Positions 1-42,067 of a stretch of DNA of 64,000 bases are shown here, in pieces (position 1 is the first letter of the stretch; each line of letters begins with the position of its first letter). The stretch lies in the sequence record NC_019500.1; one strand, 5' to 3'. Position numbers and translations under genes: made by a program. The notes under the pieces were generated by a model. It ran no database searches and was not told where the DNA came from. It was given only the letters and a program-made list of their open reading frames with translations. Source of the DNA: Escherichia phage Bp7.

Positions 1-507
1 CCTAACTATGTTTGTGACTGGACGTCGTTGCGGGAAGACTTGGCTAAACATGGCATCCGTAATAGCACATTATCAGCACTTATGCCGTGTGAATCAAGCA
101 GCCAGGTTTCCAACTCTACAAACGGTATCGAACCTCCACGTGGTCCGGTAAGTATTAAAGAATCTAAAGAAGGTAACTTCCGTCAGGTAGTTCCTAATGT
201 AGAACATAACCAAGGACTCTACGATTACGCTTGGAGCCTCGCTAAGAAAGGTAATAAACCTTATCTTACCCAAGTGGCAATAGCGTTGAAATGGGTGTGT
301 CAATCGGCATCAGCTAATACATATTATGACCCACAGATTTTTCCAAAAGGAAAAGTTCCGATGTCGGTAATGCTTGATGACCTGCTGTATTTCTGGTACT
401 ACGGTGGTAAGAACCTTTACTATCATAATACCCGTGATGGCTCTGGTACTGATGACTATGAAATCGAAACTCCTAAAGCCGATGATTGTGCAGCTTGTAA
501 GCTTTAA
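1..507 (+). CDS. nrdA: Ribonucleotide reductase large subunit NrdA, C-terminal part (gene continues upstream of window)
   Basis: Frame-1 ORF open from window edge; C-terminus ...DDYEIETPKADDCAACKL resembles class Ia NrdA C-terminal Cys pair; synteny immediately upstream of nrdB. Confidence 0.8.
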   Translation, partial: PNYVCDWTSLREDLAKHGIRNSTLSALMPCESSSQVSNSTNGIEPPRGPVSIKESKEGNFRQVVPNVEHNQGLYDYAWSLAKKGNKPYLTQVAIALKWVCQSASANTYYDPQIFPKGKVPMSVMLDDLLYFWYYGGKNLYYHNTRDGSGTDDYEIETPKADDCAACKL

Positions 508-561
508 TAAAATCCGATTATAATTGACTCACGGATGAGTCACTAACAAAATGAGAATAAT

Positions 562-1236
562 ATGTCTACAGTTTTTAATACTACCCCAGTTGATGTTTTA
601 GTCGAGCCGATGTTCTTTGGTTCAGGATTAGGTATCGCCCGTTATGATATCCAACGTCATAAAGTGTTCGAAGAGCTTTGTGAAAAGCAACTATCATTTT
701 TCTGGCGTCCAGAGGAAGTTAACTTGATGATGGACTCTGCGCAGTTAATAAGCTTCCAGAGTTCCAACAAAATATATTTACCAATAACTTGAAATATCAG
801 TCGCTTTTGGACAGTATTCAGGGCCGGGCTCCTTCTGCTGCACTCCAAGCCTTGATTTCTGACCCTAGCCTTGATACATGGGTGGCAACATGGACCTTTA
901 GTGAAACTATTCACTCGCGTTCGTATACCCATATCATGCGTAACCTCTATACAGACCCATCTAAGGTATTTGATGAAATTCTGTTAGATGACGCTATCAT
1001 GAAGCGCGCTGAATCCATTGGTCGTTATTATGATGACGTTATTGAGAAAACTAGATATTGGCAGAATGCTAAAGCTGATATTGAGTACCAAAAAGAAATT
1101 AACGCAGACGAAGATGATATTGAAGATGCCATAGAGCATGAGATGTATTGGAAACGTGAACTGATGCGTTCTCTTTATCTCTGTTTGCATGTTATCAATG
1201 CCTTAGAAGCTATTCGTTTTTATGTATCTTTTGCGT
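562..1236 (+). CDS. nrdB: Ribonucleotide reductase small subunit NrdB, exon 1 (apparent 1-nt frameshift near 745)
   Basis: [12 protein letters not shown]...EEVNLMMD in frame 1 then continues in frame 3 (...[21 protein letters not shown]...[12 protein letters not shown]); matches T4/E. coli NrdB; exon ends at T1236. Confidence 0.8.
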
Positions 1237-1310
1237 AAAATGCGCCTTTAAACGGTAACGTTTATCGAAAACTCCTTTAATTGCTGGAAAGTCCTTTATA
1301 GGAAAACTAG

Positions 1311-1337
1311 CAGCCAAGGTTTTGCTTGCACCTTTAA
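1311..1337 (+). promoter_or_regulatory. Putative middle promoter (MotA box TTTGCTTGCA, 11 nt, TATAAT) inside intron upstream of endonuclease ORF
   Basis: Sequence motif match to T4 middle promoter consensus. Confidence 0.45.
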
Positions 1338-1381
1338 TTAGTATAATATAAATATGATTATACTTTTAAGAGGATGCACAA

Positions 1382-2188
1382 TTGAACTATAGAAAAATTT
1401 GGATAGATGCTAACGGACCTATACCTAAAGATTCTGATGGAAGAACATACGAAATCCATCATAAAGACGGTAACCGTGAAAATAATGATTTAGATAATTT
1501 GATGTGCCTTTCTATACAGGAACATTATGATATACATTTAGCTCAAAAAGATTACCAGGCTTGTCATGCTATAAAGCTTAGAATGAAATATTCTCCTGAA
1601 GAAATTTCTGAATTAGCTTCTAAAGCCGCAAAATCTAGAGAAATCCAGATTTTTAATATCCCTGAAGTACGAGCTAAAAATATTGCCTCTATTAAATCTA
1701 AGATAGAAAATGGTACATTTCATCTTTTAGACGGTGAAATACAGCGTAAATCTAATTTAAATAGAGTTGCATTAGGTATACATAATTTCTCTAGAGGAGC
1801 CCATGCAAAAGTTAAAGAACGCAATATTGCAGCTATAAAAGAAGGTACTCATGTATTTTGCGGTGGTAAAATGCAGTCAGAAACTCAATCAAAACGGGTA
1901 AATGACGGTTCACATCATTTCTTGTCAGAAGACCATAAGAAAAGAACATCAGCAAAAACATTAGAAATGGTTAAGAACGGGACCCATCCTGCACAAAAAG
2001 AAATCACATGTGATTTCTGCGGTCACATTGGTAAAGGTCCTGGATTTTATCTAAAACATAATGACAGATGTAAATTAAATCCAAATAGAATTCAATTGAA
2101 TTGTCCATATTGTGATAAGAAAGATTTATCACCATCAACATATAAACGATGGCACGGCGACAATTGCAAAGCAAGGTTCAACGACTAG
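1382..2188 (+). CDS. Intron-encoded HNH homing endonuclease (I-TevIII-like), TTG start
   Basis: 268 aa; EIHHKDGNRENNDLDNLMCLSIQEHYDIH HNH motif; C-terminal Cys/His zinc-finger-like pairs; RBS aagagga upstream of TTG. Confidence 0.75.
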   Translation: MNYRKIWIDANGPIPKDSDGRTYEIHHKDGNRENNDLDNLMCLSIQEHYDIHLAQKDYQACHAIKLRMKYSPEEISELASKAAKSREIQIFNIPEVRAKNIASIKSKIENGTFHLLDGEIQRKSNLNRVALGIHNFSRGAHAKVKERNIAAIKEGTHVFCGGKMQSETQSKRVNDGSHHFLSEDHKKRTSAKTLEMVKNGTHPAQKEITCDFCGHIGKGPGFYLKHNDRCKLNPNRIQLNCPYCDKKDLSPSTYKRWHGDNCKARFND

Positions 2189-2324
2189 TCTTCGGACGTA
2201 GGGTCAAGCGACTCGAAATGGGGAGAATCCCTCTGGGATTGTGATATAGTCTGGTCTGCATAGTAATATGTAGCAGTTCATAAGAGAACGGGTTGAGAAT
2301 TAGCGAGCTCAATCGAACATAACG

Positions 2325-2827
2325 GTACCTTTAACTTCCATAAGAACATGGAAATCATGGAAGGTAATGCTAAGATTATGAAGTTCATTGCACGTGATGA
2401 ACAGCTCCACCTTAAAGGCACCCAGTACATTATTCGTCAGCTCCAACTTGGTACTGATGGCGACGAATGGGTTAAAATTGCTCAAGAGTGCGAACAAGAA
2501 GCAGTTGATATTTTCATGGAAGTTAACCGTCAAGAAAAAGAATGGGCCGCTCACCTGTTCAAAGATGGTACTTGCCCTGGATTAAATACTCAGAACATGG
2601 GTGCTTTTGTCGATTACCTGACAGTTTCTCGTATGAAGCAATGTGGCTTACCGTGTCCTATTACTGATGCTCCTACTCGCCATCCTTATCCTTGGATTCG
2701 CGAATACCTGAACTCTGATGCTGTACAGGCTGCTCCTCAGGAAGTGGAAATCAGTTCTTACCTTGTAGCACAAATTGATAACGATGTTGATGAAAAAGTA
2801 ATGGCATCGTACAAGAAATATTTTTAA
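2325..2827 (+). CDS. nrdB: Ribonucleotide reductase small subunit NrdB, exon 2
   Basis: TFNFHKNMEIMEGNAKIMKFIARDEQLHLKGTQ... to C-terminus; matches NrdB iron-ligand region. Confidence 0.8.
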
Positions 2828-2854
2828 GGAATGGGGCTTCGGCCCCTTATTGCT

Positions 2855-3268
2855 ATGAAAGAAATCGCAGACGAATTTAGCTTTATCAAGTACGTCACCC
2901 TAGAACTCCAAGATGACGCCACCATAGCTCCACTCACAGTACCAAATAAACAAAATGTCATATATGCTATAGCGGTTGATGATATACTAGTCTACGTTGG
3001 GAAGACTAAAAATCTTCGTAAGCGCATCAACTACTACCGAACCGCTATTAATCGTAAGGACCAAACGTCGGATTCGACTAAGTCCATTCTGATTCATGAA
3101 GCATTAATGGCTGGTAAAAAGGTAGAGTTCTATGCACGGCAGTGCTTTAATCTGTCGATGACTAACGAACTTGGAACTATGTCAGTTGAGACCATGTCTC
3201 TTGAAGAGCCAATGTTCATAAAGAAATTTAATCCACCTTGGAATACCCAACACCGATTAAAAGGATAA
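2855..3268 (+). CDS. denA: Endonuclease II DenA (GIY-YIG family)
   Basis: MKEIADEFSFIKY...YAIAVDDILVYVGKTKNLRKRINYYRTAINRKD; strong similarity to T4 DenA; start taken at internal ATG matching T4 N-terminus. Confidence 0.85.
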   Translation: MKEIADEFSFIKYVTLELQDDATIAPLTVPNKQNVIYAIAVDDILVYVGKTKNLRKRINYYRTAINRKDQTSDSTKSILIHEALMAGKKVEFYARQCFNLSMTNELGTMSVETMSLEEPMFIKKFNPPWNTQHRLKG

Positions 3269-3272
3269 AGCA

Positions 3273-4421
3273 ATGATTGAATTATATGATAACTTGATGG
3301 CCCTGGTTAAAAACTCGACTAAATCTAAGTTCTTCTTTAAAGACTTTCAGAGTGCGCTAGGAGTCAACTATCGCATCTTTAGTTATAACTATGCCTCGTA
3401 CAGTGATTGGTTGGAAGACGGCGCGCTAGAGGGCCGAGGCATTATGTTTGAAATGGACGAGAACGGTCCAGTACGTATTGCTGCTCGTCCTATGCAAAAG
3501 TTCTTTAACCTTGACGAAAACCCTCTGACCATCGGTCTAGATTTGTCACCAGAAAATATTGACCTCGTAATGGCTAAGGAAGATGGTTCTCTGATTTCTA
3601 CATTCATGGACCGACAGTATCTTTCTGTTAAATCTAAAGGCTCTATCCATTCATCAATGGTGCATGATTCTTTACGGTTCCTTCGTCTCCCTGAGAACGA
3701 GGCTTTTGCCGCACGTCTAGAAGAAATCACCAAAGCTGGGTATACCTGCAACCTTGAATATGTAGCACCTACCAACCGTATCGTTCTGGCTTACCAAGAA
3801 ACAAACCTCATCCTGTTGAACGTTCGTAATAATGAAACAGGTGAATATATTCCGTATGCTGAATTGTTTAAAGATGGTGCCCTGCGTAAGCATTTGGTTG
3901 AAAGCTATGACCTCGCTGAAGGTGATTTCGTAGAAAACATCCGTAAACAAGAAGGTATTGAAGGTTTCATCTTTGTACTGAAAGATGGTACGTTCTTTAA
4001 ACTCAAAACCGCCTGGTACAGTGCACTGCACCATACCAAAGATTCCATTAACAATAACGAACGTTTGTTTGAAGTTGTAGTGGCTGGTGGAACTGATGAC
4101 CTTCGTGGATTGTTCAGTACAGATTCGTTTGCTATCGAGAAAATCGATGCCTTTGAACGTATCCATTTAGATTACTTAGAACAATCATTAGCCTTGTTAG
4201 AAGCAGCGTACTCCCAACTTAAGGGTCGCGACCGTAAGGACTACGCCGTTACTGGTCAACTAATCCTTAAGGACTTTCCAGGGTTGTTCTCTATTCTTAT
4301 GCAGGCGTACGTAGGCGGCATTAATTATGATACGGTCATGGACCAGATTAACTCTGTGTTCTTGAAAAACCATAAAGCCCAAATCCCTGAAAAATATTTG
4401 AAAGAAATTGTGGTAGAGTAG
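3273..4421 (+). CDS. rnlA: RNA ligase 1 (gene 63, tail fiber attachment catalyst)
   Basis: 382 aa; YRIFSYNYASYSDWL...ALEGRGIMFEMD...KEDGSL motifs matching T4 RnlA. Confidence 0.85.
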   Translation: MIELYDNLMALVKNSTKSKFFFKDFQSALGVNYRIFSYNYASYSDWLEDGALEGRGIMFEMDENGPVRIAARPMQKFFNLDENPLTIGLDLSPENIDLVMAKEDGSLISTFMDRQYLSVKSKGSIHSSMVHDSLRFLRLPENEAFAARLEEITKAGYTCNLEYVAPTNRIVLAYQETNLILLNVRNNETGEYIPYAELFKDGALRKHLVESYDLAEGDFVENIRKQEGIEGFIFVLKDGTFFKLKTAWYSALHHTKDSINNNERLFEVVVAGGTDDLRGLFSTDSFAIEKIDAFERIHLDYLEQSLALLEAAYSQLKGRDRKDYAVTGQLILKDFPGLFSILMQAYVGGINYDTVMDQINSVFLKNHKAQIPEKYLKEIVVE

Positions 4422-4449
4422 TTTACATCTCCTCATGATGTGTTAGTAT
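4421..4449 (+). promoter_or_regulatory. Putative early promoter (GTTTACA -35, 17-nt spacer, TAGTAT -10)
   Basis: Motif match; upstream of alc-like ORF. Confidence 0.45.
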
Positions 4450-4479
4450 AGACTTACCAACTAATGAGGAGAAAACAAA

Positions 4480-4980
4480 ATGAATATGCAAATGATTACT
4501 AACGAAATGGTTGTTAAGGCTTTTGGTGACTCTACCGACGGTATCCAAGTTTTTAAAGGTTCTCGTGCAGTAGGTTACCTGACCGATCTTCGTGTTACTT
4601 TAGCTAAAAATGCTAAAAAGAAAATCAAGCAAAAAGAATACTCTACCCGTTACGCTGAAGAAAAGCGTGAAGCCATGCCCGAAGCTGTTAACTCTATGGT
4701 TGAGTTTCTCCGAAACAACCTTTCCAAGTATGATGCTGAGGTGTTCATTAATATTAGCCAACCTAATGTTAAAATCTCAGGCATCACTTTCTATTTGATT
4801 TGTGACCCATTAAGCGACAAGTTTAATCGCCTTGGCATTTCAAGTCCTTACCATACCGCTGAAGAATTGTGTTTTATGTTCGAAACGTACAAAATTCAGT
4901 GCGAAAATCCTAAAACGGTTCTTATTAATTCCCTGTCACGTGATGACATCATCGAGATTATTACCAAATGTCTAAATTAA
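4480..4980 (+). CDS. alc: Alc-like protein (inhibitor of host transcription on cytosine DNA), tentative
   Basis: 166 aa ORF at the position alc occupies in T4 (between 63 and pseT region); size matches T4 Alc (167 aa); identity by synteny and size only. Confidence 0.5.
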   Translation: MNMQMITNEMVVKAFGDSTDGIQVFKGSRAVGYLTDLRVTLAKNAKKKIKQKEYSTRYAEEKREAMPEAVNSMVEFLRNNLSKYDAEVFINISQPNVKISGITFYLICDPLSDKFNRLGISSPYHTAEELCFMFETYKIQCENPKTVLINSLSRDDIIEIITKCLN

Positions 4981-5321
4981 GTATTTACCTTTTAGCTGGA
5001 GCCATTGCAGTAGGTGCTTACGGTTTTATTTCGTATCAATCAAGTCGTATTGATACCCTTACCGAAGAACTGAAAACAACCCAGCAAACAGCTAAACAGA
5101 ACGCTGAAGCTGTAGAGGACCTTCGCGGTCAATACTCTGATATCGAATTCCGTACTACTGAAATGAATGCCCGAATGGATAAAATTAAGGTAGAAAATGA
5201 AAAGCTCCGTAAAGATTCGAAGAAGGCGCACGTGGTGGCAAGTAAGCCAGGACTGGTCGAAAAACAAATCAACAAGTCCTTCGATTCCTTTACAGAAGAC
5301 TTCAGGAGCATTACAGAATGA
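4968..5321 (+). CDS. i-spanin (Rz-like; T4 pseT.3 equivalent)
   Basis: 117 aa; N-terminal TM segment (LSIYLLAGAIAVGAYGFISY) followed by charged coiled-coil; overlaps next ORF. Confidence 0.7.
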   Translation: MSKLSIYLLAGAIAVGAYGFISYQSSRIDTLTEELKTTQQTAKQNAEAVEDLRGQYSDIEFRTTEMNARMDKIKVENEKLRKDSKKAHVVASKPGLVEKQINKSFDSFTEDFRSITE

Positions 5322-5608
5322 TTAAATTATCTGTGGTAGTATTATCTATTGGCTTGTTAGTTGGATGTGCCCAGGATATCCCTGTAGTGCCTAAGCAACA
5401 GCTGCATCCTTCATGGCCACAACCTATTGCCGAACATAATGTTAAATGGCAGGTTAAGGTAATCGATGGTAAAGCTTGGGTTGGAATGCCTTTCGAAGAC
5501 TCCCAAGAACATCGTATTTGGTTGAATGACGTAAAAAGATATGTACAAGACCAGAAATCTATGTTATGTTATTATCGTTCTGGACTAAAAGAGGAGAAGT
5601 GCAAATGA
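5318..5608 (+). CDS. o-spanin lipoprotein (Rz1-like; T4 pseT.2 equivalent)
   Basis: 96 aa; signal peptide with lipobox LLVGC; Pro-rich mature region; adjacent to i-spanin. Confidence 0.7.
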   Translation: MIKLSVVVLSIGLLVGCAQDIPVVPKQQLHPSWPQPIAEHNVKWQVKVIDGKAWVGMPFEDSQEHRIWLNDVKRYVQDQKSMLCYYRSGLKEEKCK

Positions 5609-5711
5609 TTGAGTCTTGTATCGATGGGTCGGATATCATTCTATTTGGCTTTACATGCTTTTGTTTTGGAATCGTGCTTAGCATGTGTATGCATGGTCTT
5701 TTTGGAAAGTA

Positions 5712-5741
5712 GTTTACAAACTCTTGGGAGCAGAGTATAAT
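5712..5741 (+). promoter_or_regulatory. Putative early promoter (GTTTAC, 18 nt, TATAAT), -10 inside hairpin GGAGCA/TGCTCC
   Basis: Motif match. Confidence 0.55.
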
Positions 5742-5775
5742 GCTCCTACGGATTATAAAAATTGAGGAAATTATT

Positions 5776-6075
5776 ATGAAAGAATTATTAGAGAATTACA
5801 TCAAGTGTTCAGACAATTACGTGGATTTATGTTATGGATTGAAAATATCTGAACATGATGAAGATGCGGCGCATCTGGCATTAGATACCGCAGGTAAAGC
5901 CTTGCGTAAAGCAGCTAAAGCCCAGGGCGTTGATATGGCTGAACTAAAGAAACATTTAATTATGTTTATCTCTGCTAACGTCTCTAGCCGGTCGGGTAAC
6001 AAAGCTGTCGCAAAATCAGGTGAAGAACGCACTGAACTACGCATTCAGCTCCTCAAAACCTCTGTTGGGAATTAA
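5776..6075 (+). CDS. Hypothetical protein (pseT.1 position)
   Basis: ORF with RBS gaggaaa 7 nt upstream of ATG 5776; immediately precedes pseT. Confidence 0.55.
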   Translation: MKELLENYIKCSDNYVDLCYGLKISEHDEDAAHLALDTAGKALRKAAKAQGVDMAELKKHLIMFISANVSSRSGNKAVAKSGEERTELRIQLLKTSVGN

Positions 6076-6983
<908 letters not shown>

Positions 6984-6984
<1 letters not shown>

Positions 6985-7181
6985 TGAATAATATCGAAAA
7001 GATTTTTCGTACAATCGAAGAAATTGAAAAACGTAAATGCTTTTTCTTCGGCGTATGGCCTTTAACTGATGGACGTATTGGCCTGGATGTGATGGACTAT
7101 AAAGATGAAGACAAGGTCGATGGTGGTATTTTTAAATCCGCTCCTGAACTCCTTGCCTTCTTGGAAGAACATTATGTATAA
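6984..7181 (+). CDS. Hypothetical protein
   Basis: 65 aa ORF, start overlaps pseT stop (translational coupling). Confidence 0.45.
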
Positions 7182-7389
7182 CAAACACCATGAAGTTGAA
7201 GAAGAAGCTTATAAAGAGCTTCAGAAATTGGTAGGTCAGAATATGTCTCCTACCCTCATTAACTCACTAGCGGCCCTTCGTAATGACCTCAATGAACGTT
7301 ACAAAGGCGAGTACTATGTTGAGTTCGTTCCTCTGACTGAAGTCGTTGACCGGTTTATTGTTAACGTGAAGGTCCATACAGTACACTGA
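7177..7389 (+). CDS. Hypothetical protein
   Basis: ORF in cd.x-type small-gene block; internal ATG with RBS chosen. Confidence 0.4.
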   Translation, partial: YNKHHEVEEEAYKELQKLVGQNMSPTLINSLAALRNDLNERYKGEYYVEFVPLTEVVDRFIVNVKVHTVH

Positions 7390-7396
7390 GGTAATT

Positions 7397-7675
7397 ATGT
7401 TCCCTACTTATTCTGAAATTGTTAAAGTAGTTTTTAGTCAGATTGTATCTGATTATCTATACGAAACCGTCGACACGTCGACTGAACTAAAAGTGCACGG
7501 TCGTTTGTCTGCTATTCTGGAAATCATGTTCCCGGATGCAGTTGATGCAATCACTGTTCAACTCACGCCTGGTGCAGCATTTGCAATTGTTCCATTTAAA
7601 ATTGATAACCACATTTTGGCTATTTCATGCAAAATGGACTTCCAGAAACAAACGGTAGTTGTCGAAGCAATTTAA
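7397..7675 (+). CDS. Hypothetical protein
   Basis: 92 aa ORF. Confidence 0.45.
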   Translation: MFPTYSEIVKVVFSQIVSDYLYETVDTSTELKVHGRLSAILEIMFPDAVDAITVQLTPGAAFAIVPFKIDNHILAISCKMDFQKQTVVVEAI

Positions 7676-7676
7676 G

Positions 7677-7706
7677 TGTTTACACTATGGTAGGACTGTG
7701 GTATAG
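7677..7706 (+). promoter_or_regulatory. Putative early promoter (GTTTAC, 18 nt, TATAGT), -10 in loop of hairpin GGTAGGACT/AGTCCTACC
   Basis: Motif match. Confidence 0.5.
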
Positions 7707-7737
7707 TAGTCCTACCGAAACAAATGAGGAAATCGAA

Positions 7738-8292
7738 ATGAGCCAGTTCTTTGAAGAGCGTAAGTTTTATAAGTTCGTTGGTGAATACACTAAAAACAAA
7801 TTCACTAATAACGGTGCTTATGGCCTCAATACAGCTTTTGCCAAGTATGTAGGTATGAACCCGTTTGAAGTTGAAATTGATTACCATAACGGGAAGCCAC
7901 GTGTAAGCCGAATTCGTGTATACGATGAGTTGATGTTTGTTGACCTGAGCAAAATCACAGGTAATCCCGATGATGCAACTAGTGTTCTTTTTAATTCAGT
8001 AGGCGCCTTTGCCCATGAATTCGAATACTTTATTGAAGTAGTACGTCCACTGGCTACTACGAGTATTGCTGTAAAGCCGGAACCTAAGCCAGTAAAAGCT
8101 ACAGCCGATTGGAAAGTGCTTATTGTTAAAAATGGTAAGATTGAAGTTCATTCTCGCCATAACACAAAGGAACAAGCCGATCGTCAGGCTGAAGAGCTTT
8201 TGACTAAGTCGTTCCAACAAGTGTGTTATATTGTTAAAGGCGACATTACCCAAGCTACCACTACCAAACAACTTAAGTTGGAGAGCATCTAA
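7738..8292 (+). CDS. Hypothetical protein
   Basis: 184 aa from ATG with RBS gaggaaa; ORF track start 7627 lies inside promoter. Confidence 0.5.
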   Translation: MSQFFEERKFYKFVGEYTKNKFTNNGAYGLNTAFAKYVGMNPFEVEIDYHNGKPRVSRIRVYDELMFVDLSKITGNPDDATSVLFNSVGAFAHEFEYFIEVVRPLATTSIAVKPEPKPVKATADWKVLIVKNGKIEVHSRHNTKEQADRQAEELLTKSFQQVCYIVKGDITQATTTKQLKLESI

Positions 8293-28403: not shown

Positions 28404-29182
28404 AATATTTCCTCGAAAAATTTGGTAACCATTTTACCGTAATGCACATTAGGATAACCGGCTTTAATGGCTTCTTTTGTAAATTTACCAACTTTAAGCT
28501 TTCCTGTATTTATCCAAAGCTCTTTAAGCTCATCATACATTAACCAGTGTGGATATTTCTTAGCCAAAGTAGCTTGCCAATTTTTAGAATGGTCCTCAGA
28601 CCTAAACGATTTCTTTACACCTTTATTGGCTTTGCCAGCTTTTGAACACGTTTCATAATCTCCGGCTTTAATAGGTGTAAATCCTTTCATTGCTTTAGAC
28701 CTTTTGGCTATGGTCTCTTTGGATTGCTTGGAGCCTTTATTTTTGGTCCAAGCCTTTTCTAAAGCTTTTAATTTGGCTTCTGTTAATCCAACTTTAGCCA
28801 TAGCTTTTCGGTGTATTTCTCTTCGTTCATCAGTCCATTCATAAGAACCGTTTGTATTACCAATCATGGCTTCGCTTATTAATCTAGAAGCATTTTCTTT
28901 TAAAATGGAAATAGACCTAGAGCTTATCTCATTTAATCTTTTGCCACATGTCATACCAAATGCGGCACGCCATAATTTTCCACCTTGAGCTTTAGCCAAG
29001 ATTATATGGCCCAAAATATGTTCCCTAATAGTCAATGCAACTAAATTGTTAGGGTCATCGGAACCACCTATCGACTTAGGAATAATATGATGAATTTCGA
29101 TTTTACAGGGCGCAGTAGCTTTGGTCCATCCTCTGGACCTAGCATTCTCTATTAAATCATCGTAAATTTTCTGATAATTCAA
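28400..29182 (-). CDS. HNH homing endonuclease (free-standing, between uvsW and uvsW.1)
   Basis: 260 aa; HHIIPKSIGGSDDPNNLVALTIREH HNH motif; overlapping start/stop with neighbours. Confidence 0.75.
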   Translation of the reverse strand: MNYQKIYDDLIENARSRGWTKATAPCKIEIHHIIPKSIGGSDDPNNLVALTIREHILGHIILAKAQGGKLWRAAFGMTCGKRLNEISSRSISILKENASRLISEAMIGNTNGSYEWTDERREIHRKAMAKVGLTEAKLKALEKAWTKNKGSKQSKETIAKRSKAMKGFTPIKAGDYETCSKAGKANKGVKKSFRSEDHSKNWQATLAKKYPHWLMYDELKELWINTGKLKVGKFTKEAIKAGYPNVHYGKMVTKFFEEIL

Positions 29183-30682
29183 AGCTGCACCTCTTTCATA
29201 ACATAATTAAATTTCTCGTCGGCGTATCGTTGTATACGTTCCAATCCATGTTTCAGGCAATAATTTAAATGAACATATTTCTTTTTAGAATCTTTAGATT
29301 TAGGGCGGACTCCCATATCATCCACGAGGTCCCAGACTTGGGCCACTTGTTTGCTATCGTGCTTACGTAGAACACGCCCAATTGTTTGCAGAACAATGAT
29401 TTTAGATTTTACGCCGTGAGCAAATACAACGTGGTGAAGGTTCTTAACGGAAATACCAGTAGAGAACACACCATAACTTGCCACAACAATAATACCCTTA
29501 CCATTTTCCGCCATTACTTTCAGAGCATTACGCGTTTCGGTATTAACTTCACCTGATACGTAATAAACTTCTTTATGTTGCTCTTTAACCATTTCAAAAA
29601 GAGTTTTACCGTGTTCGATGTTTTTAAACATCAGGAATACGTTCTCTTCTTTCTTAGCGAGTTTAACAGCTAAATTAGCAACCCATTTATTACGACGAGT
29701 AGCCTTAGTAATGACCTTGATTTCTGATTGGTAATCTTTACCTTTCATCTTAACAGTGAATTCGTCTGGGTATCGAAGGAAAATACTGTTGATTTTAAGG
29801 TCGGTAACCTGTCCTTCTTCCATTAACTGGGAAGTGGATACCGGCTTAAACACATCACCAAACAAACCCATATATTGCATTAAATTAGCTTTACCATCTT
29901 TTAAAGAACCAGACAAACCGAATTTAAACATACAGTTGGTTAGGCCTTCGATGATAGTAGAAATAGATTTACCTGTAGCCAAATGGCATTCGTCGTTCAT
30001 AAACATACCGAACTGAGCAAACCATTCTTTAGGTTGCTTGATAGCAGTTTGATAAGTTGAAACGTAAATCATTGCATCAGAATCACGAGCAGTACCTGAA
30101 CGAATACCAAGCATTGCTGCTTTAGGGAACAATCGATAATCGATGAAGTCATTAATCATCTGGTCGACAAGTGCAGTAGTAGGAACCAGAATAAGGATTT
30201 TACCTTCATAGTTCTCAACGTAATATCGACTCAGGAGCGCCTGGATTAATGATTTACCTGCGGATGTAGGTAAATTCAGAATTGCACGACGTTTTGTCAG
30301 GCCGTTGTATACGGCTTCATTCTGATACCAATGAGGCTCAATCTTGGTAGACCCTGAATAAATTTCTTGAGAAGCTACCCATGAATCAAAATCTTCACGA
30401 GAAATATCTTCCTGTTCAAGAATACGCGGGTCAATCCACAGAGAATATTCAAATTGTTCAGCGAACTTTTTAATTTGAGGGACAAGTCCATAAGGGCAAG
30501 TTTACGGCAGTTACGTAATCTAGAAGAAGAAGACTTCCATCCCATTGCCCATAACGAAATTTAGGGTTGAATTTATATCCATCGGCTTCAAAGCTAAAAT
30601 AGTCTCTGAGTTCGTAGAATGTGGATTCATCACACTCAATACGAACATGACTAAAATTATCGAAATGTACTTGAATTTGCAT
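29179..30682 (-). CDS. uvsW: DNA/RNA helicase UvsW (apparent 1-nt frameshift near 30490)
   Basis: N-terminus MQIQVHFDNFSHVRIECDESTFYELRDYFSFEADGYKFNPKFRYGQWDG; after frame change continues ...PYGLVPQIKKF...LPTSAGKS...DECH...QTIGRVLR; matches T4 UvsW in two frames. Confidence 0.8.
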
Positions 30683-30696
30683 AAGTAATTCTCAGT

Positions 30697-30704
30697 TATA
30701 AATA
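30697..30704 (+). promoter_or_regulatory. Late promoter TATAAATA for inh-hoc
   Basis: Exact octamer 33 nt upstream of inh ATG. Confidence 0.5.
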
Positions 30705-30710
30705 TAGTTA

Positions 30711-30718
30711 TATTTATA
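30711..30718 (-). promoter_or_regulatory. Late promoter TATAAATA (minus strand) for uvsW
   Basis: Exact octamer on minus strand upstream of uvsW start. Confidence 0.5.
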
Positions 30719-30737
30719 CACCAACAAGAGACTAATT

Positions 30738-31409
30738 ATGGATACTCAATATATTGAAGAGCTTCGTGCACTCGAAGATAAAAAAGAAGCTAAAGCTAAG
30801 TTAATCGAATACGGCGAACAGTTCGGTTTAAAACTTAAGAAAACCCGTTCGTTTGATAATTTGATTATCGATATCTCTGAAGGCCTTAAAGCCCTGGCTG
30901 ATGAACCACTTCCAGAAACCGAAGGGTTGTCTATTTCTGATTTGATTGATGCTGATAACGAACTCACCGGTGGTAATGACTTTATCGAAGGTGTAGAACC
31001 AGCTAAAGAAGAAGCCACCCTGTTGTTCGATGCTCCTGAGGCTGTAGTCGAAGTCATTGAGGTAGCCGAACTTCCTAAGGTCGAGATTATTGAAGAAGAT
31101 GTCCCATTTGACGAAGAGAAATTCAAAGAGGCTGTAGCCAAGGTTGTTGAATTGGAAAAACCTGTATTCTCTTTACCTGAAAACTTCAGCCCTAATCTTT
31201 TGCTTATCGGTAAGAACCCTGGCTATTGCACCGTTCCTTGGTGGATTTACCAATGGATTTCTGAGACCCCGGATTGGAAAGAACGTCCAACTGCTTTCCA
31301 ACATCCTTCTGCCCACCAAACATTATTTAGTCTGATTTATTACATTAATCGTAATGGTTCAGTATTAGTACGTGAAACTCGTAACTCATCTTTTGTCACT
31401 TTAAAATAA
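30738..31409 (+). CDS. inh: Inhibitor of prohead protease Inh
   Basis: 223 aa; position between uvsW and hoc; size matches T4 Inh. Confidence 0.7.
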   Translation: MDTQYIEELRALEDKKEAKAKLIEYGEQFGLKLKKTRSFDNLIIDISEGLKALADEPLPETEGLSISDLIDADNELTGGNDFIEGVEPAKEEATLLFDAPEAVVEVIEVAELPKVEIIEEDVPFDEEKFKEAVAKVVELEKPVFSLPENFSPNLLLIGKNPGYCTVPWWIYQWISETPDWKERPTAFQHPSAHQTLFSLIYYINRNGSVLVRETRNSSFVTLK

Positions 31410-31418
31410 GGGTTTATT

Positions 31419-32267
31419 ATGGCTTATACCGTAGATATGGCTCCTTTGGCGGCTACGGCCGTTATTGGAGCAACAACCAATTTCACTGCGACCGGTTCCG
31501 GTGCTGCAGCTGAAGGTACCGAATCATTTGTCTGGACCGTTGATGGCGTTCCTCAATCTTCTGTGACTGCTGCAATGGATTATGTTGCTGTTGGCCCGGC
31601 AGGCAGCAAGACTATTAAAGTTGTTGCAACAACTACACCGGCGGACGGCGAACCAGAAACAGCTGAAGCCGAAACAACTTTAACTATCCAGAATAAAACC
31701 ATTTCCGGTGTTTCTGTGACATTAACCCCAGCTTCGATTAATGTTCCGGAAGGCACTCCAGCTTCTTTTAAAGCGGATGTGGTCGGCGCTCCTGCTGGTG
31801 CTACTTTTGCCTATTCTTGGAAGAAAGACGGTTCTCCTGTAGTTGGCACCACGGATACTCTAGCAATCGATACAAGCACTGAAGGTTCACAGGTTATTGA
31901 AGTTTCTGTTGTGGTTTCGGCGACTGATTATAACCCGGCGACTGTCACAAAAACCGGTAATGTAACAGTCACGGCTAAAGTCGCACCGGTTCCGGATGGC
32001 GAATTACCTTACGTTCATCCACTCCCTGTTCGTAATTCAGCATATATTTGGGTTGGTTGGTGGGTTATGGATGAAATCCAGAAAATGACTCTTGAAGGCA
32101 AAGACTGGAAAACAGATGACCCGGATAGCCCGTATTATTTGCACCGATATACACTTCAAAAAATGATTACCGACTATCCAGAGGTTGATGTACAAGAATC
32201 TCGTAATGGTCGAATTATTCATCGCACCGCTTTAGAAGCTGGTATTATATACGATTACGTTTACTAA
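31419..32267 (+). CDS. hoc: Outer capsid protein Hoc (shortened)
   Basis: Ig-like repeats and conserved capsid-binding C-terminus ...LPYVHPLPVRNSAYIWVGWWVMDEIQKMT...YYLHRYTLQKM...; 282 aa vs 376 in T4. Confidence 0.85.
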   Translation: MAYTVDMAPLAATAVIGATTNFTATGSGAAAEGTESFVWTVDGVPQSSVTAAMDYVAVGPAGSKTIKVVATTTPADGEPETAEAETTLTIQNKTISGVSVTLTPASINVPEGTPASFKADVVGAPAGATFAYSWKKDGSPVVGTTDTLAIDTSTEGSQVIEVSVVVSATDYNPATVTKTGNVTVTAKVAPVPDGELPYVHPLPVRNSAYIWVGWWVMDEIQKMTLEGKDWKTDDPDSPYYLHRYTLQKMITDYPEVDVQESRNGRIIHRTALEAGIIYDYVY

Positions 32268-32270
32268 TTA

Positions 32271-32291
32271 TGGGCCGCAAGGCCCATTTTG
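32271..32291 (+). terminator. Rho-independent terminator TGGGCCGCAAGGCCCA + TTTT
   Basis: Hairpin plus T run after hoc. Confidence 0.6.
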
Positions 32292-32581
32292 CATTAAAGT
32301 ACAAAATTCCTGTTTACAAGGACTCTAGTCTATGTTAAGATGGGTTTACCAACTCAACGAGAGAATTGTTATGGATAAGGTTAAAGTACATTTTTTACAC
32401 GAATCCGGGTTGAATTTTATAGAAATTGCTAAAAAAATGGGCGGGACCGCTAAGGATATGGCCAAAGCATGGGTTGATGTAGAACAAGCCTAGAGCCAAA
32501 TTTAAAGCGAAAGAAAAGGTTGTTTATCGTAAAAGATTGAACAACAAGGTTCGGCGCAAAGCGCGTTCTGGTTCAAAGTAA

Positions 32582-32609
32582 TATGCTTTAAATTTAGGTG
32601 TGATATAAT
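32582..32609 (+). promoter_or_regulatory. Putative middle promoter (MotA box TATGCTTTA, 13 nt, TATAAT) upstream of rnlB
   Basis: Motif match. Confidence 0.5.
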
Positions 32610-32695
32610 GAGTCTAGGTCCTTCCGTTAAACCATTTGGCTTGGTGACAGAAGACTACTAGCTCTTCTATTTAATTATATTTATTATGGTGATTT

Positions 32696-33703
32696 ATGTT
32701 CAAGAAATATAGCAGTCTCGAAAACCACTACAACAGTAAGTTTATCGAAAAACTCCGTACTAATGGTTTGACTGGTGGTGAATGGGTAGCACGTGAGAAG
32801 ATTCATGGAACCAACTTTAGTTTAATCATAGAACGTGACGCAGTCACATGCGCCAAGCGCACTGGCCCTATCCTCCCTGCTGAAGATTTCTATGGTTATG
32901 AAATTGTACTTAAGAACTACGCTGATTCTATTAAATCAGTTCAACATCTAATTGAATCGATTAATTATCAGTCATACCAGATTTATGGCGAATTCGCTGG
33001 GACAGGTATCCAGAAGAATGTGGACTACGGCGATAAAGACTTTTATGTGTTCGATATCCGAGTTACTAAAGAAGATGGCTCAGAATCTGTTCTAACCGAT
33101 ACATTGATGGAAGCCTTCTGTATTATCCATAAGTTTAAGGTAGCTCCATGTCTGGCCACTGGTAGCTTTGAAGACCTTATTAAACTTCCTAATGATTTTG
33201 ATTCAGTTGTTCCTGATTATAATTTTGCAGTGGATAACGCAGGCTTAACTATTGCAAACTCAACCGATTTTATTCCTAAGGTAGAAGGTAAGGTATTCAC
33301 GGCTGAAGGCTTTGTATTGAAACCTGATGTTCCTACCTGGCTTCCAAACGGAAATCGTGTGGCGATTAAATGTAAGAACTCTAAATTCAGCGAGAAGAAA
33401 AAGTCTGATAAGCCTATTAAAGTTGCAGTGGTTTTATCCCAAGATGATATGGATTTGATGTGGCAATTCACTGATTATGTGACTGTTAACCGCATTAACA
33501 ATGTCATCAGTAAGATTGGCGAAGTATCGCCGAAGGATTTCGGAAAGGTGATGGGCTTGACAGTCCAGGATATCCTTGAAGAAGCCGCCCGTGAAGAATT
33601 GGAATTAACTGATGCGGAAAATCCCGTTGAAGTTAAAAAGCAGCTCGTTGAGTGTGTAAAAGAAACATTAAGACATGTATGGATTGAACTAGTATCCAAA
33701 TAA
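32696..33703 (+). CDS. rnlB: RNA ligase 2
   Basis: [20 protein letters not shown]...[10 protein letters not shown] (KxHG adenylation motif); near-identical to T4 Rnl2. Confidence 0.9.
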
Positions 33704-33710
33704 ACGATAA

Positions 33711-33738
33711 AGGGACCGTAAGGTCCCTTTTATTTTTC
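33711..33738. terminator. Bidirectional terminator AGGGACCGTAAGGTCCCT + T-tract
   Basis: Hairpin between convergent rnlB and gene 24 paralog. Confidence 0.6.
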
Positions 33739-35010
33739 TAAAGGCGGTAATTTTACGCCGAGATAAGAACTCAATTGACTTTGATTAGCCATTTTGTCCA
33801 TATCAGAACCATCAATAATGCGGGCTTCTTTATCGTCCTTAGCGACGGTATAAGGGTTTGCAGTCAATGCATAACGAGCAAGCAATGCTACTGTAGGTTG
33901 TAAGCTTTCCGGGTCAACAATAACCTTAAATTCACCAACTGAAGTATCACCTTCTTCGTCAACCACATTCAAACCTTCCGTATAAGGCGCATAATATAAA
34001 GATGCGACCGTCTGTCCTTCACCCATCTGGGCATTTACACCAACAATAACATAATCACATGGACTATTCATATCAGCATAAAGTGGTAGGCCATTCTTTA
34101 ATATACCATAAGCCAATTCGTCCTGGTCTTCCTTTTTCTCAACCCAACCAGAGGCGGCGAGAATAGCAGCACAACGAGAACTAGCTACTGCATAAGTCCC
34201 GGCAAAAGAAGTCTGTCGTTGGACGGCAGAGTTCATCTCACACATATAATAATATAATGTGCGAGCACGGTCCTGGGCATTATCGTAGCGAGGGTTGGTA
34301 AGGTCTAATACACCCTTTTCAGAAACACCCTGGACTTTAAAACGAGAGCTCACGGTAATTAATGACTGTAATACATCCTTATTAATTTCTTCTGCCATTT
34401 GAATGCCTAGCAGATTTTCAACGAAATTAGGAGCATTAAACCCGTTAGATTCTAGGTCTTGGGCTAATTCGACTGTCAATGAAGTTTTCAGTTTACGTGA
34501 TTTAACTTCAGATTGCCATTTGTCGATGCGGAATCCGGTTTCAGCAATTTCAGGATGGCCTTGTTCAAATTTAGAAGTAATAGCAGCATCCGACACCATA
34601 CGGATATGGCCGGCTGCCACTGCTTCAGAAATAACTTCGCTGAGGTTGGTTTCTGTGGTTCCGGCGAAAGGAGATGCTTCTAGAACTTTAAACACTACGC
34701 TTTCAAACTGGAACATATCACCGACCGCATAAGCTGTAGATGAATCAGTAAATTCTGGAATATTTTCACGTTCCGTCATACCAATCTGGCCCGCAAATGT
34801 TGCTCCACCAAGATAAGTCATTTTGTCGTCAGGGTTCAGTACACGTACCCCATACAGAGCAGCAACCGGTTGATTTGTTTTTTGTTCAGCAACTAGGGCT
34901 TTAAAGATTCGTTTATTAGTTGCTTGGGTGTATGAAAGAAGAGCAGGACGGCCAACCGAGCTGGCAGCCGTCAATGTGGATTCTTTAATTAGGTCTACAA
35001 TCTTAGACAT
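33730..35010 (-). CDS. Capsid vertex protein gp24 paralog (divergent second copy)
   Basis: 426 aa; gp24/gp23-fold conserved blocks (KSRKLKTSLTVELAQDLESNGF, YYAPYTEGL, RYALTANPYTVAKDDKEARIID). Confidence 0.85.
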   Translation of the reverse strand: MSKIVDLIKESTLTAASSVGRPALLSYTQATNKRIFKALVAEQKTNQPVAALYGVRVLNPDDKMTYLGGATFAGQIGMTERENIPEFTDSSTAYAVGDMFQFESVVFKVLEASPFAGTTETNLSEVISEAVAAGHIRMVSDAAITSKFEQGHPEIAETGFRIDKWQSEVKSRKLKTSLTVELAQDLESNGFNAPNFVENLLGIQMAEEINKDVLQSLITVSSRFKVQGVSEKGVLDLTNPRYDNAQDRARTLYYYMCEMNSAVQRQTSFAGTYAVASSRCAAILAASGWVEKKEDQDELAYGILKNGLPLYADMNSPCDYVIVGVNAQMGEGQTVASLYYAPYTEGLNVVDEEGDTSVGEFKVIVDPESLQPTVALLARYALTANPYTVAKDDKEARIIDGSDMDKMANQSQLSSYLGVKLPPLEK

Positions 35011-36293
35011 TAATCAGCCTCGTAAATAATTGCCGGAAGTTTAACGCCAACCAGATAAGACATATTGCTCTGTCCAGCCATTAAATCCATATTGGTTGCA
35101 TCGATAACACGAGCTTCTTTATCGTCTTTAGCCACGGTGTACGGGTTAGCTGATAGTGCATAACGAACCATCAGAGAAATAGAAGGTTGTAATGAATCCG
35201 GGTCAACAATAACCTTATAAGCACCGACGTGTTCTTGGTCATCTAAATCTAAGCCTTCGGTATAGGGAGCGTAGAAAATAGAACCGACAACTTCATTACC
35301 GCCGTAATTCTCTTTAACACCAACGGTAACATAATCTAATGGACTGTTAACGTCACAAAACAGAGGCAGACCATTCAACAAATATCCGTATGCAGTTTCC
35401 GGAAGCCAATTATTATCTTCGGGTTTATGTTTTAACCAGCCAGAACCTGCAAGCATTGCAGCCACACGACTTGAAGCCACAACAAACGTGCCAGAATAAG
35501 AAGTAGTTTTCTGGATTTCAGAATTCATCTCACAAACGAGTTCATAAAGTTTACGTGCAGATTCAGGAGCACTGTCATAAGACAAATCGATGATGCCGTT
35601 ATCAGATACACCAGTAACTTTATAACGTTTGGATACGGTTATTAGAGATTGCAGAACGTCTTTATTAATTTCATCTGCCATTACTGTAGCCAAGAGGTCT
35701 TCTAAGAACGCCGGCGCGTCAAAGCCATTTGATTCCATATCCTGCGCTAATTCTACAGTCAAAGCCGTCTTCAATTTACGGGTCTTAACCGGAGCATTCC
35801 ATTTATTAACCTGGAATACGGCATCAGAGATTTCTACATCACTCGCTTCAAATTTAGTGGTATGGGCAGCATCAGGAACCAGACGACATGTTAATGACAC
35901 TAAACCTTCTTGAAGAGCATCAGCCAATTCTGTGGCGCTAGTGGACGCGAGTGGGCTTGCTTTAAGAGCCTTATAAACCACATTCTGATACTTGAAATAT
36001 TCACCCTGAGCAATCGCCTGGGCCTTATCTGTGAGTTCTGGGATAGTTTCACGGTCTTTAGAACCAACTTCACCACCATAAGAGGCACCTGTCTGGAAAC
36101 TAAATTCATTATCAGGGGTAAGATATTTGACACCATACAGTGCAGCAATAGGCTGGCTAGTACGTTGTTCGGCGATAATATCACGGTAAATCAATTTGGT
36201 TGTAGCACGGGTCAAAGCAACAAGATTAGGGCGACCCAATGAGTTGCTGGAAGTAGTTGTTGACTCGCGCAGTAATTCGTTAATCTTTGCCAT
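35010..36293 (-). CDS. 24: Capsid vertex protein gp24
   Basis: 427 aa; MAKINELLRESTTTSSNSLGRPNLVALTRATTKLIY... matches T4 gp24. Confidence 0.9.
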   Translation of the reverse strand: MAKINELLRESTTTSSNSLGRPNLVALTRATTKLIYRDIIAEQRTSQPIAALYGVKYLTPDNEFSFQTGASYGGEVGSKDRETIPELTDKAQAIAQGEYFKYQNVVYKALKASPLASTSATELADALQEGLVSLTCRLVPDAAHTTKFEASDVEISDAVFQVNKWNAPVKTRKLKTALTVELAQDMESNGFDAPAFLEDLLATVMADEINKDVLQSLITVSKRYKVTGVSDNGIIDLSYDSAPESARKLYELVCEMNSEIQKTTSYSGTFVVASSRVAAMLAGSGWLKHKPEDNNWLPETAYGYLLNGLPLFCDVNSPLDYVTVGVKENYGGNEVVGSIFYAPYTEGLDLDDQEHVGAYKVIVDPDSLQPSISLMVRYALSANPYTVAKDDKEARVIDATNMDLMAGQSNMSYLVGVKLPAIIYEAD

Positions 36294-36321
36294 TGCGCTT
36301 TCCTTATTGAGGGTATATGTT

Positions 36322-36329
36322 TATTTATA
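36322..36329 (-). promoter_or_regulatory. Late promoter TATAAATA (minus) for gene 24
   Basis: Exact octamer about 30 nt upstream of gene 24 start. Confidence 0.55.
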
Positions 36330-36335
36330 AAAGTT

Positions 36336-36365
36336 GTTTACAGCAAGATTCTCACATGTTACTAT
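36336..36365 (+). promoter_or_regulatory. Putative early promoter (GTTTAC, 18 nt, TACTAT)
   Basis: Motif match. Confidence 0.5.
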
Positions 36366-36394
36366 AGACCTATCAAAACATGAGGAGATTAAAA

Positions 36395-36661
36395 ATGAAC
36401 AAGTTAAACTTTATTCGTACTACTCTTTCCGCTCTTGATAAAGACATCAAAGCTCTGGTAGAAAAATTCGGTAACAATCCTAATGGTAATGCAGTGAATG
36501 CCTTAGTTAAGAAATACGAAGCCATGGCTTATGCTACCGACTTCTGGTGGAACGGTGAATACTCTACCCATACCAAAGACAAATCTGGTAACTGGCTGAA
36601 AATCCAAGAAAATCGTATTGACTTCCGTGATATCATCAACCGCCGAGTTAAGATTGCATAA
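36395..36661 (+). CDS. Hypothetical small protein, antisense-oriented between genes 24 and 23
   Basis: 88 aa; RBS gaggag 7 nt upstream; own promoter and terminator. Confidence 0.55.
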   Translation: MNKLNFIRTTLSALDKDIKALVEKFGNNPNGNAVNALVKKYEAMAYATDFWWNGEYSTHTKDKSGNWLKIQENRIDFRDIINRRVKIA

Positions 36662-36676
36662 TACAGAAACAAGAAT

Positions 36677-36700
36677 GGGAGACCGAAGTCTCCCATAATA
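36677..36700. terminator. Hairpin GGGAGACCGAAGTCTCCC between convergent ORF and gene 23
   Basis: Perfect 7-bp stem, tetraloop. Confidence 0.5.
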
Positions 36701-36710
36701 AGGTTATATC

Positions 36711-38270: not shown

Positions 38271-38291
38271 GTGTTGTATAACCTTATTAAA

Positions 38292-39107: not shown

Positions 39108-39134
39108 TTTGTAGTCCTGTTGTTTAGATAATAA

Positions 39135-39142
39135 TATTTATA
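39135..39142 (-). promoter_or_regulatory. Late promoter TATAAATA (minus) for gene 22
   Basis: Exact octamer. Confidence 0.5.
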
Positions 39143-40201: not shown

Positions 40202-40446
40202 TATTCGTCGTCCTCGTCATCATCCGCATCGTCAGATTCTTTTTTGTCTTTCTTATCTGCTTTATCGGATTTTTCGTCGTCTTCGTCATCTTCGTCAGCT
40301 TCTTCGCCTTCAATCATAACGGAGCGAGCAATTTCTGCTTTACGGGCTTCAATCAAAGCGGTTACTCGAGATTCGATAAGCGGGGCTGCTGCTTTACGAA
40401 CTGCTACGAGGTCGTTTGATTTAATAGCTTCGATTAAATCTTCCAT
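40201..40446 (-). CDS. 67: Prohead core protein gp67
   Basis: 81 aa with poly-acidic C-terminus; synteny. Confidence 0.75.
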
Positions 40447-42019: not shown

Positions 42020-42067
42020 TAGAGTCTCCGATGAATGGGATAAGGAGCCGAAGCTCCTTGATAATTC

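Follow-up and report, generated by a model that had tools for sequence, protein, structure and literature searches.

The nrdB introns of T-even phages have been described as self-splicing (PMC2988022), and the copy in RB3 (Eddy and Gold, 1991, as cited in PMC2988022) is mobilised by I-TevIII, which was found experimentally to be active (Robbins et al., 2007; PMC1865063). In I-TevIII the HNH motif occupies the first 50 residues, residues H26, H27, N39, and H48 were shown by mutagenesis to be needed for catalysis, residues 166-269 form the minimal DNA-binding domain, and DNA binding involves two zinc fingers of the form CX2CX12-13HX3C (PMC1865063). The nrdB intron of T4 depends on MobE for its movement (PMC2790892). 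The td and nrdD introns of T4, which encode I-TevI and I-TevII, likewise belong to the group I introns of phages; in them, as in the nrdB intron, the ORF loops out of a peripheral helix, a late promoter and a ribosome-binding site (RBS) hairpin provide control, the endonuclease cleaves away from the insertion site, and homing is accompanied by co-conversion (PMC2988022). I-TevI and I-TevII are, however, GIY-YIG monomers, whereas I-TevIII belongs to the HNH enzymes and works as a dimer (PMC1865063).

Here, I describe an element in nrdB at the left end of a 64-kb stretch of phage DNA (the window hereafter), where nrdA stops at 507 and nrdB starts at 562. It is very probably an RB3-type nrdB group I intron with a full-length HNH homing endonuclease, I-TevIII, that arrived by homing. 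The element as such is already known in detail from the RB3 and T4 literature, having been described between 1986 and 2007.

The interruption of nrdB and its closest relatives

As translated, the nrdB reading frame ends at a TAA (1236-1238) and picks up again at 2325. The window was aligned with the intronless nrdB genes of five Dhakavirus phages (MX01, IME540, QL01, WG01, and KIT01) and the intron-bearing genes of RB3, PaulHMueller, and T4. A single gap of 1088 nt in the five intronless genes matched, exact to the base, the interruption of ~1.09 kb that an earlier note on this DNA had placed at 1237-2324. The gap cannot be shifted and the intron boundary is fixed to the base, because the junction bases differ on both sides (T1236 vs G2324, and A1237 vs G2325). 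Exon 1 ends in TTTGCG-T, the intron in AACG, and exon 2 begins with GT-ACC-TTT: splicing forms a T/GT codon for Cys and restores SFA-C-TFNFHKNMEIMEGNAK (the SFA-C-TFNFH block), as had been claimed together with the terminal T of the exon and the terminal G of the intron. The exon junction is the same as in RB3 and T4, that is, the canonical nrdB site. All features are collected in the table.

Table. Features of the nrdB locus, with positions in the window and the evidence for each
Feature	Position	Strand	Evidence
nrdB exon 1	562..1236	+	alignment to 8 nrdB genes
Upstream co-conversion tract (putative), RB3/T4-type bases, mosaic (1190 and 1196 Dhakavirus-type)	1185..1236	+	diagnostic sites
P1: exon GCGU 1233-1236 / internal guide GCGC 1242-1245, 5' splice site at the U1236-G1242 wobble	1233..1245	+	sequence, RNAfold
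Group I intron, RB3 nrdB type, phage IA2-like architecture, 1088 nt	1237..2324	+	homologue gap, RB3 alignment, covariance models
P2 hairpin 1249-1254/1259-1264, GUAA tetraloop	1249..1264	+	RNAfold
5' core half: P3 5' strand 1272-1276; P4 1282-1287/1307-1312	1265..1318	+	model R1, pair counts
5' core half: P5 1292-1295/1300-1303; P6 5' strand 1314-1315	1265..1318	+	model R1, pair counts
P6a 5' strand, pairs with 2166-2172	1319..1325	+	7/7 pairs with compensatory changes across family
Middle-promoter-like: MotA-box-like TTTTGCTTGC 1320-1329, 12-nt spacer, TATAAT 1342-1347	1320..1347	+	sequence reading
Predicted hairpin sequestering Shine-Dalgarno AAGAGGA 1368-1374	1327..1378	+	fold
T4 late-promoter consensus TATAAATA, in RBS-hairpin loop	1347..1354	+	sequence reading
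I-TevIII homing endonuclease ORF, TTG start, 268 aa	1382..2188	+	translation, Pfam, RB3 annotation
Unique replaced patch, CTCTAGAGGAGCCCA vs RB3's TCAACAAGCTGAGCATAT, QQAEHI to SRGAH, in frame	1789..1803	+	alignment
3' core half: P6a' 2166-2172; P6' 2175-2176; P7 2181,2183-2187/2247-2252	2166..2273	+	model R2, pair counts, Rfam alignment
3' core half: P7.1 2188-2190/2195-2197; P7.2 2201-2205/2210-2214	2166..2273	+	model R2, pair counts, Rfam alignment
3' core half: P3' 2221-2225; P8 2226-2231/2235-2240; P9 2256-2262/2267-2273	2166..2273	+	model R2, pair counts, Rfam alignment
P9.1 2276-2279/2286-2289; P9.2 2291-2297/2308-2314; terminal G 2324	2276..2324	+	RNAfold, sequence
nrdB exon 2	2325..2827	+	alignment, reading frame
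Downstream co-conversion tract (putative), minimum extent; next site, 2425, Dhakavirus-type	2325..2344	+	diagnostic sites

A megablast search with 1100-2450 matched 742 phage records, 82 of which covered at least 80% of the query, and the ORF segment that T4 is missing was found in 83 phage records. In the records of RB3 and RB5-RB10 the ORF is annotated as I-TevIII within a two-piece nrdB. Compared with the RB3 intron, 1077 of 1091 alignment columns were identical (99% identity), and the 14 differences were limited to a SNP at 1448 and the patch at 1789-1803. The two share the insertion site in nrdB, an identical RNA core, the TTG start and the stop of the ORF, the promoters, and the RBS hairpin. 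They differ in that the window has T1448 where RB3 has G (Y23 vs D23; PaulHMueller shares the state of the window), in the patch, which replaces 18 nt by 15 and shortens the ORF from the 269 aa of RB3 to 268 aa, and in the surroundings, since the host exons are Dhakavirus-type and no mobE adjoins nrdB. The T4 intron (598 nt) has the same site and catalytic core, with seven substitution or indel differences outside a deletion of 488 nt (1446-1933 in the window) that removes the HNH domain; its I-TevIII is annotated as defective, and the earlier note was right to call this ORF truncated. Its suggested comparison across related phages placed the intron in RB3/T4-type phages and found it absent from the five Dhakavirus nrdB genes.

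The ORF had been described as a 268-aa HNH frame with a TTG start, which agrees with a Pfam HNH_3 match (aa 4-48, E 5.9e-13) and with the RB3 annotation of I-TevIII, which begins at the identical TTG; a GAGG Shine-Dalgarno (1370-1373) lies 8 nt upstream. The encoded protein is ~97% identical to that of RB3 and keeps H26, H27, N39, and H48 as well as both C-terminal zinc fingers (CDFC...H..DRC and CPYC...H..DNC), including the Cys equivalents of RB3 C211, C214, C242, and C245. The ORF is I-TevIII itself: its designation as 'I-TevIII-like' was correct as to kinship but understated. The description 'intact' holds for its full length, with two caveats, namely the patch of five residues for six in the ORF and the frameshift of exon 1 as read (see below). 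The final 23 nt of the ORF double as P6a', P6', J6/7, and P7, and its UAG stop (2186-2188) covers the last bases of P7 and the first of P7.1.

The patch comprises residues 137-141, a stretch that separates the HNH motif from the minimal DNA-binding domain, and was found neither in any of the 83 phage records with the ORF segment nor in IMG/VR. When a template was sought within the window, the best match was 15 of 18 nt in denA (3197-3214); this source was not built on, the chance of one such match being ~0.04. A bolder reading is that the patch is a real variant, possibly a patch repair from denA 3197-3214, rather than a sequencing artefact.

The middle-promoter-like motif reported in the earlier note was recovered as a MotA-box-like element 12 nt from a TATAAT. 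The late promoter and the RBS-sequestering hairpin had been overlooked there, as had a deletion at 744/745 in exon 1. The hairpin has a predicted energy of -14.9 kcal/mol (z -3.46), only one of 200 shuffles was equally stable, and the Shine-Dalgarno lies in its 3' arm. With the late promoter placed in its loop, the hairpin would lose its 5' arm in late transcripts. T4 intron endonucleases are driven from middle and late promoters, and the arrangement of late promoter and RBS hairpin has been described for I-TevI and I-TevII as well as I-TevIII (PMC2988022). A sigma-70 promoter scan was uninformative on T4 middle and late promoters.

The group I core on both sides of the endonuclease ORF

An Rfam scan of the whole window at the gathering threshold gave zero matches. 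Below it, Intron_gpI (RF00028) matched 2033-2273 with 34 bits (E 1.3e-6; the cut-off of 50 was not reached), and at E<=0.01 Rfam had no other match anywhere in the window. In the alignment, J6/7-P7, P3', P8, J8/7-P7', and P9 were correctly placed, and P1-P5 were forced into the ORF. The nrdB intron of T4, which is biochemically established, scored 35.7 bits and thus also fell below the cut-off despite its shorter ORF. Because a proven intron scores alike, the low score is best read as a core that is present but split by an ORF in P6a that the model cannot bridge.

As an independent test, IMG/VR was scanned for GGTTCAACGACTAGTC, a 16-nt motif spanning J6/7-P7-P7.1, which yielded at least 120 loci, and 30 different compact introns whose cores are of similar length were taken from these. 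They were aligned with a composite in which the ORF had been cut out of the window (1268-1334 plus 2162-2285), giving alignment A1 of 31 sequences. A P3-P9 structure was drawn by hand, in which P3 and P7, which form a pseudoknot, each had a bracket type of its own. All 51 proposed P3-P9 pairs form in the window. Across A1, 95.3% of cells were paired, compared with 35-45% when the 3' partners were slid by one to three columns; 33 of the 51 pairs had changed on both sides, the covariation score was 0.42 (0.14 when shuffled), and none of 500 shuffles attained these values. Covarying helices were P3, P5, P6a, P7.2, P8, and P9. In contrast, P4, P6, P7, and P7.1 were nearly invariant and uninformative, partly as a result of choosing introns by a shared motif: P7 and P7.1 add no covariation evidence because the 30 introns were picked by the 16-nt motif that the window shares.

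The compact introns resemble the window in their P3-P9 architecture, including P7.1 and P7.2, and their J3/4-P4, P4'-P6, J6/7-P7, and J8/7 strands are nearly identical to those of the window. They differ in their host genes, in that P6a mostly carries no ORF while some have ORFs in P8, and in their stem sequences, which is the origin of the covariation signal. Two models were then built from the 30 viral-contig introns with the window excluded, R1 for the 5' half and R2 for the 3' half. On the 64-kb window, R1 gave one match at 1265-1318 (+ strand, 57.6 bits, E 1e-12) and R2 one match at 2173-2273 (+ strand, 98.4 bits, E 1.9e-16), in the correct order on either side of the ORF. The covariance-model check that the earlier note had proposed was accordingly sub-threshold with Rfam, and positive with R1, R2, and the P3-P9 structure.

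In RNAfold, P1, P2, P9.1, and P9.2 folded in the expected way. P1 comprises 4-5 bp, and both the U-G wobble after the last U of the exon and the terminal G of the intron are present. An earlier, bulged P6a pairing, GCUUGCA/UGCAAAGC, was dropped for GUUUUGC/GCAAAGC (1319-1325/2166-2172), which was chosen because it is continuous and lies at the P6a-homologous position of the 30 comparison introns. P6a closes an 840-nt loop (1326-2165), inside which are found the promoters, the hairpin at the RBS, and the larger part of the ORF. Between T4 and the window, P9 shows A-U to G-C and G-U to G-C changes, and in P6a G2171A turns a U-G into a U-A pair. The extra helices between P7 and P3', P7.1 and P7.2, are both present; the intron presumably belongs to subgroup IA2, like the T4 introns.

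The group I core is established as far as sequence analysis allows: the half-core models match both sides of the ORF and the helices covary, which upholds the earlier assignment as a group I intron. Guanosine-dependent self-splicing is what I infer from an RNA core identical to that of RB3 and near-identical to that of T4. Conversely, nrdB might be split into two separately translated halves by a free-standing HNH gene, mob genes being common beside nrd genes in T-even phages (PMC2988022). This explanation has a negligible probability: independent models and covariation place the two halves of a group I core on either side of the ORF, the frame of exon 2 has neither a start codon nor a ribosome-binding site at the junction, and an intron proven to splice and home shares 99% of the sequence (PMC1865063).

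Dhakavirus backbone and the flanks of the intron

Positions 30000-50000 were 97-98% identical to IME540, QL01, and WG01, and positions 1-8000 were 94-96% identical to MX01, IME540, and QL01 at 86% coverage, the remaining 14% being essentially the intron. The spliced exons were 94% identical to IME540 and KIT01 and 78.6% identical to RB3. By these identities (94-98% to IME540), the backbone is that of a Dhakavirus. For nrdB with its intron, the top match in the phage collection reached 90.7%, and none of the matches combined this intron with Dhakavirus-type exons; the intron was absent from the sequenced Dhakavirus members in the phage collection searched. The junction of a Dhakavirus exon with the intron was found neither in IMG/VR (82-mer) nor in JGI metagenomes (65-mer), and a literature search returned no paper joining Dhakavirus with a group I intron.

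Diagnostic sites were defined as those at which the five Dhakaviruses have one base in common and RB3 and T4 have another (n=136). The window was Dhakavirus-type at 126 and Tequatrovirus-type at 8 of these sites, with a pronounced clustering around the insertion: between 1185 and 2344, six of eight sites were Tequatrovirus-type (1185, 1193, 1199, 1205, 1235, and 2344), compared with 2 of 128 elsewhere (Fisher p ~1e-7). The RB3-type flanks measure ~50 nt (at most ~52) upstream and 20-100 nt downstream. Because RB3-type bases are confined to the flanks of the insertion in an otherwise Dhakavirus-type gene, they indicate arrival by homing, that is, a co-conversion footprint left by a Tequatrovirus donor. 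Such a footprint is what double-strand-break repair would leave following a cut at ~1220-1222 (I-TevIII cleavage positions taken from PMC1865063). Cleavage of a Dhakavirus allele by I-TevIII is plausible, because from -36 to +16 a single position distinguishes an IME540-like target from the RB3 site.

Movement in trans by MobE was considered as an alternative route and rejected: mobE-driven homing would convert the 5' part of nrdB (PMC2790892), exon 1 upstream of 1185 is Dhakavirus-type, and mobE is not present between nrdA and nrdB in the window, unlike in T4 and RB3.

The same short flanks could have been produced by an assembly chimera, if the sample mixed a Dhakavirus lacking the intron with a Tequatrovirus carrying it, and the assembler threaded the intron with ~50-nt flanks into the Dhakavirus contig via the exon sequence conserved around the insertion site. 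Their length (<=~52 nt upstream and 20-100 nt downstream) is near assembler word sizes, the window is visibly of draft quality, and the junction is shared with no other record or contig searched. However, the upstream flank is interleaved (Tequatrovirus-type at 1185, 1193, 1199, and 1205, Dhakavirus-type at 1190 and 1196), which resembles patchy heteroduplex repair and not a clean graph switch, and this copy of the intron carries private differences from all database copies. Moreover, homopolymer frameshifts are typical of long-read data, in which reads would presumably cross the whole locus, and short co-conversion tracts are expected from homing (PMC2988022). A chimera is therefore improbable. 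Homing from a Tequatrovirus donor remains the preferred reading, and the window likely documents, for the first time, a natural transfer in which the I-TevIII/nrdB intron passed from Tequatrovirus to Dhakavirus, with the co-conversion tracts still visible.

Sequence quality, mechanism, and meaning

As read, exon 1 is short of one nucleotide at 744/745 (TT, compared with TTT in all eight relatives), a deletion that divides it into ORFs 562..792 and 789..1238 and stops the NrdB frame at codon 77. Full-length NrdB is consequently not expected from splicing of the sequence as read. Putting one T back gives a NrdB of 392 aa that is free of other defects and differs from MX01 NrdB at seven residues. 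The window contains further broken genes: the essential portal gene lies in two ORFs (40446-41690 and 41696-42019), compared with a single 524-aa ORF in IME540, as a result of a 1-nt deletion near 41710 of the same homopolymer kind as in nrdB, and uvsW is likewise broken, with a scrambled patch at 30494-30513. Since portal and uvsW are also broken, the window is a draft-quality sequence in which single-base details are untrustworthy. The nrdB frameshift is most likely a sequence error, because an essential gene such as portal has a like deletion, and the exon 1 frameshift and the ORF patch may both be errors.

Taken at face value, these defects would instead make the locus a genuine intron in a dead gene, either through an nrdB pseudogene or through an I-TevIII inactivated by the patch, at a stage of degeneration as in T4. 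The frame does stop at codon 77 as read, the patch is unique among 83 copies, and T4 provides a natural example of decay in this very endonuclease gene. Decay nevertheless appears unlikely: the portal gene makes sequence errors the more likely cause of the frameshifts, NrdB with the T restored is changed at only 7 of 392 residues relative to MX01, the patch is in frame and touches neither the catalytic motif nor the minimal DNA-binding domain, and the RNA core is identical to that of RB3.

For a functional element that homed into nrdB, structure and identity suggest the following sequence of events. The pre-mRNA would fold into a group I core from P1 to P9.2, including a pseudoknot between P3 and P7 and two additional helices, P7.1 and P7.2, and the intron would excise itself by two-step guanosine-initiated transesterification, the first step taking place after the U1236-G1242 wobble pair and the second after the terminal G2324. 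Joining of the exons would give an nrdB mRNA of 392 codons. Following the published T-even scheme, the Shine-Dalgarno would be locked in the hairpin on the long early or middle nrdB transcript, and the late promoter in the hairpin loop would yield a shorter transcript whose ribosome-binding site is free. Double-strand-break repair would then copy the intron and short flanking exon tracts into the target, and the present copy would itself be such an arrival from a Tequatrovirus donor.

The element itself is textbook material and adds nothing on mechanism; its value is practical and evolutionary. On the practical side, Rfam at its curated threshold and annotation pipelines miss this intron, and even the copy of T4, with the consequence that the usual annotation splits nrdB into two genes and adds a 'hypothetical protein'. 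What is modestly new, as a small addition contingent on a sound assembly, is the Dhakavirus backbone, the co-conversion footprint, and the combination of this intron with Dhakavirus-type exons. If the reading is true, the tract provides a natural length measurement for HNH-driven homing between ~79%-identical exons. If the sequence is sound, it would represent a recent cross-genus spread of a homing intron among T-even-like phages with a clean co-conversion footprint, and such spread supports horizontal movement of introns far faster than the divergence of their host genes.

Reading frames and sequence quality

A 1-nt deletion (CC to C) breaks the essential portal gene (gp20) into two ORFs of 414 and 107 aa, while in the relative IME540 the gene is a single 524-aa ORF, and this broken frame indicates that the window is of draft quality. 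uvsW is likewise broken, into ORFs of 326 and 70 aa, and contains a scrambled patch with 7 bases more than IME540; in look this patch is similar to the one in I-TevIII. In nrdB exon 1, a T run is one nucleotide shorter (TTT to TT) than in all 8 aligned nrdB genes, and NrdB as read stops at codon 77, the frame being taken up again in a second ORF.

Features of the window
Feature	Position	Strand
nrdA-nrdB gap	507-562	
NrdB ORF to stop	562..792	+
T run, nrdB exon 1	744-745	+
NrdB ORF, frame resumed	789..1238	+
PaulHMueller alignment	1061-1160	
I-TevIII patch	1789-1803	+
denA ORF, mechanical start	2831	
UUCG hairpin	2833-2846	
denA start, probable	2855	
denA look-alike	3197-3214	+
uvsW	29179-30682	-
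Scrambled uvsW patch	30494-30513	
Portal gene	40446-42019	-
Portal gene deletion	near 41710	

The I-TevIII patch and denA

The patch TCTCTAGAGGAGCCCATG is unique to this copy of I-TevIII, the intron-borne endonuclease, and has one 15/18 look-alike on the same strand, TCTCTTGAAGAGCCAATG in denA. This match could be due to chance (~0.04 by my own arithmetic), but could also reflect ectopic repair or an artefact. The denA ORF, with its mechanical start, overlaps a hairpin with a UUCG loop, GGGGCTTCGGCCCC, directly 3' of the nrdB stop; comparison with MX01 places the true start probably at a downstream ATG.

Surroundings and mosaicism of nrdB

The gap between nrdA and nrdB contains neither mobE nor nrdB.1, in contrast to T4 and RB3, where the HNH gene mobE lies between the two genes. 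Some intron-bearing Tequatroviruses (PaulHMueller, vB_EcoM_F1) carry a Dhakavirus-like stretch in exon 1, which in PaulHMueller shows 13/69 differences, against 38/69 for RB3. Because of this stretch, nrdB is a two-way mosaic of Dhakavirus and Tequatrovirus. In many GenBank records the locus appears as a pair of separately annotated 'ribonucleotide reductase beta subunit' genes together with a 'hypothetical protein', and the nrdB intron has therefore been missed by automatic annotation.

IMG/VR introns for comparison

The J6/7-P7-P7.1 motif GGTTCAACGACTAGTC is present in at least 120 viral contigs (IMG/VR loci L005-L124), and the loci inspected are mostly compact group I introns with the P3-P9 and P7.1/P7.2 layout of the nrdB intron. 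Several share an identical preceding exon sequence (...AAGAAGATTAACCTAAACTCG|TAA...), and others have ORFs in P8, not P6a. These introns make a useful family for comparison.
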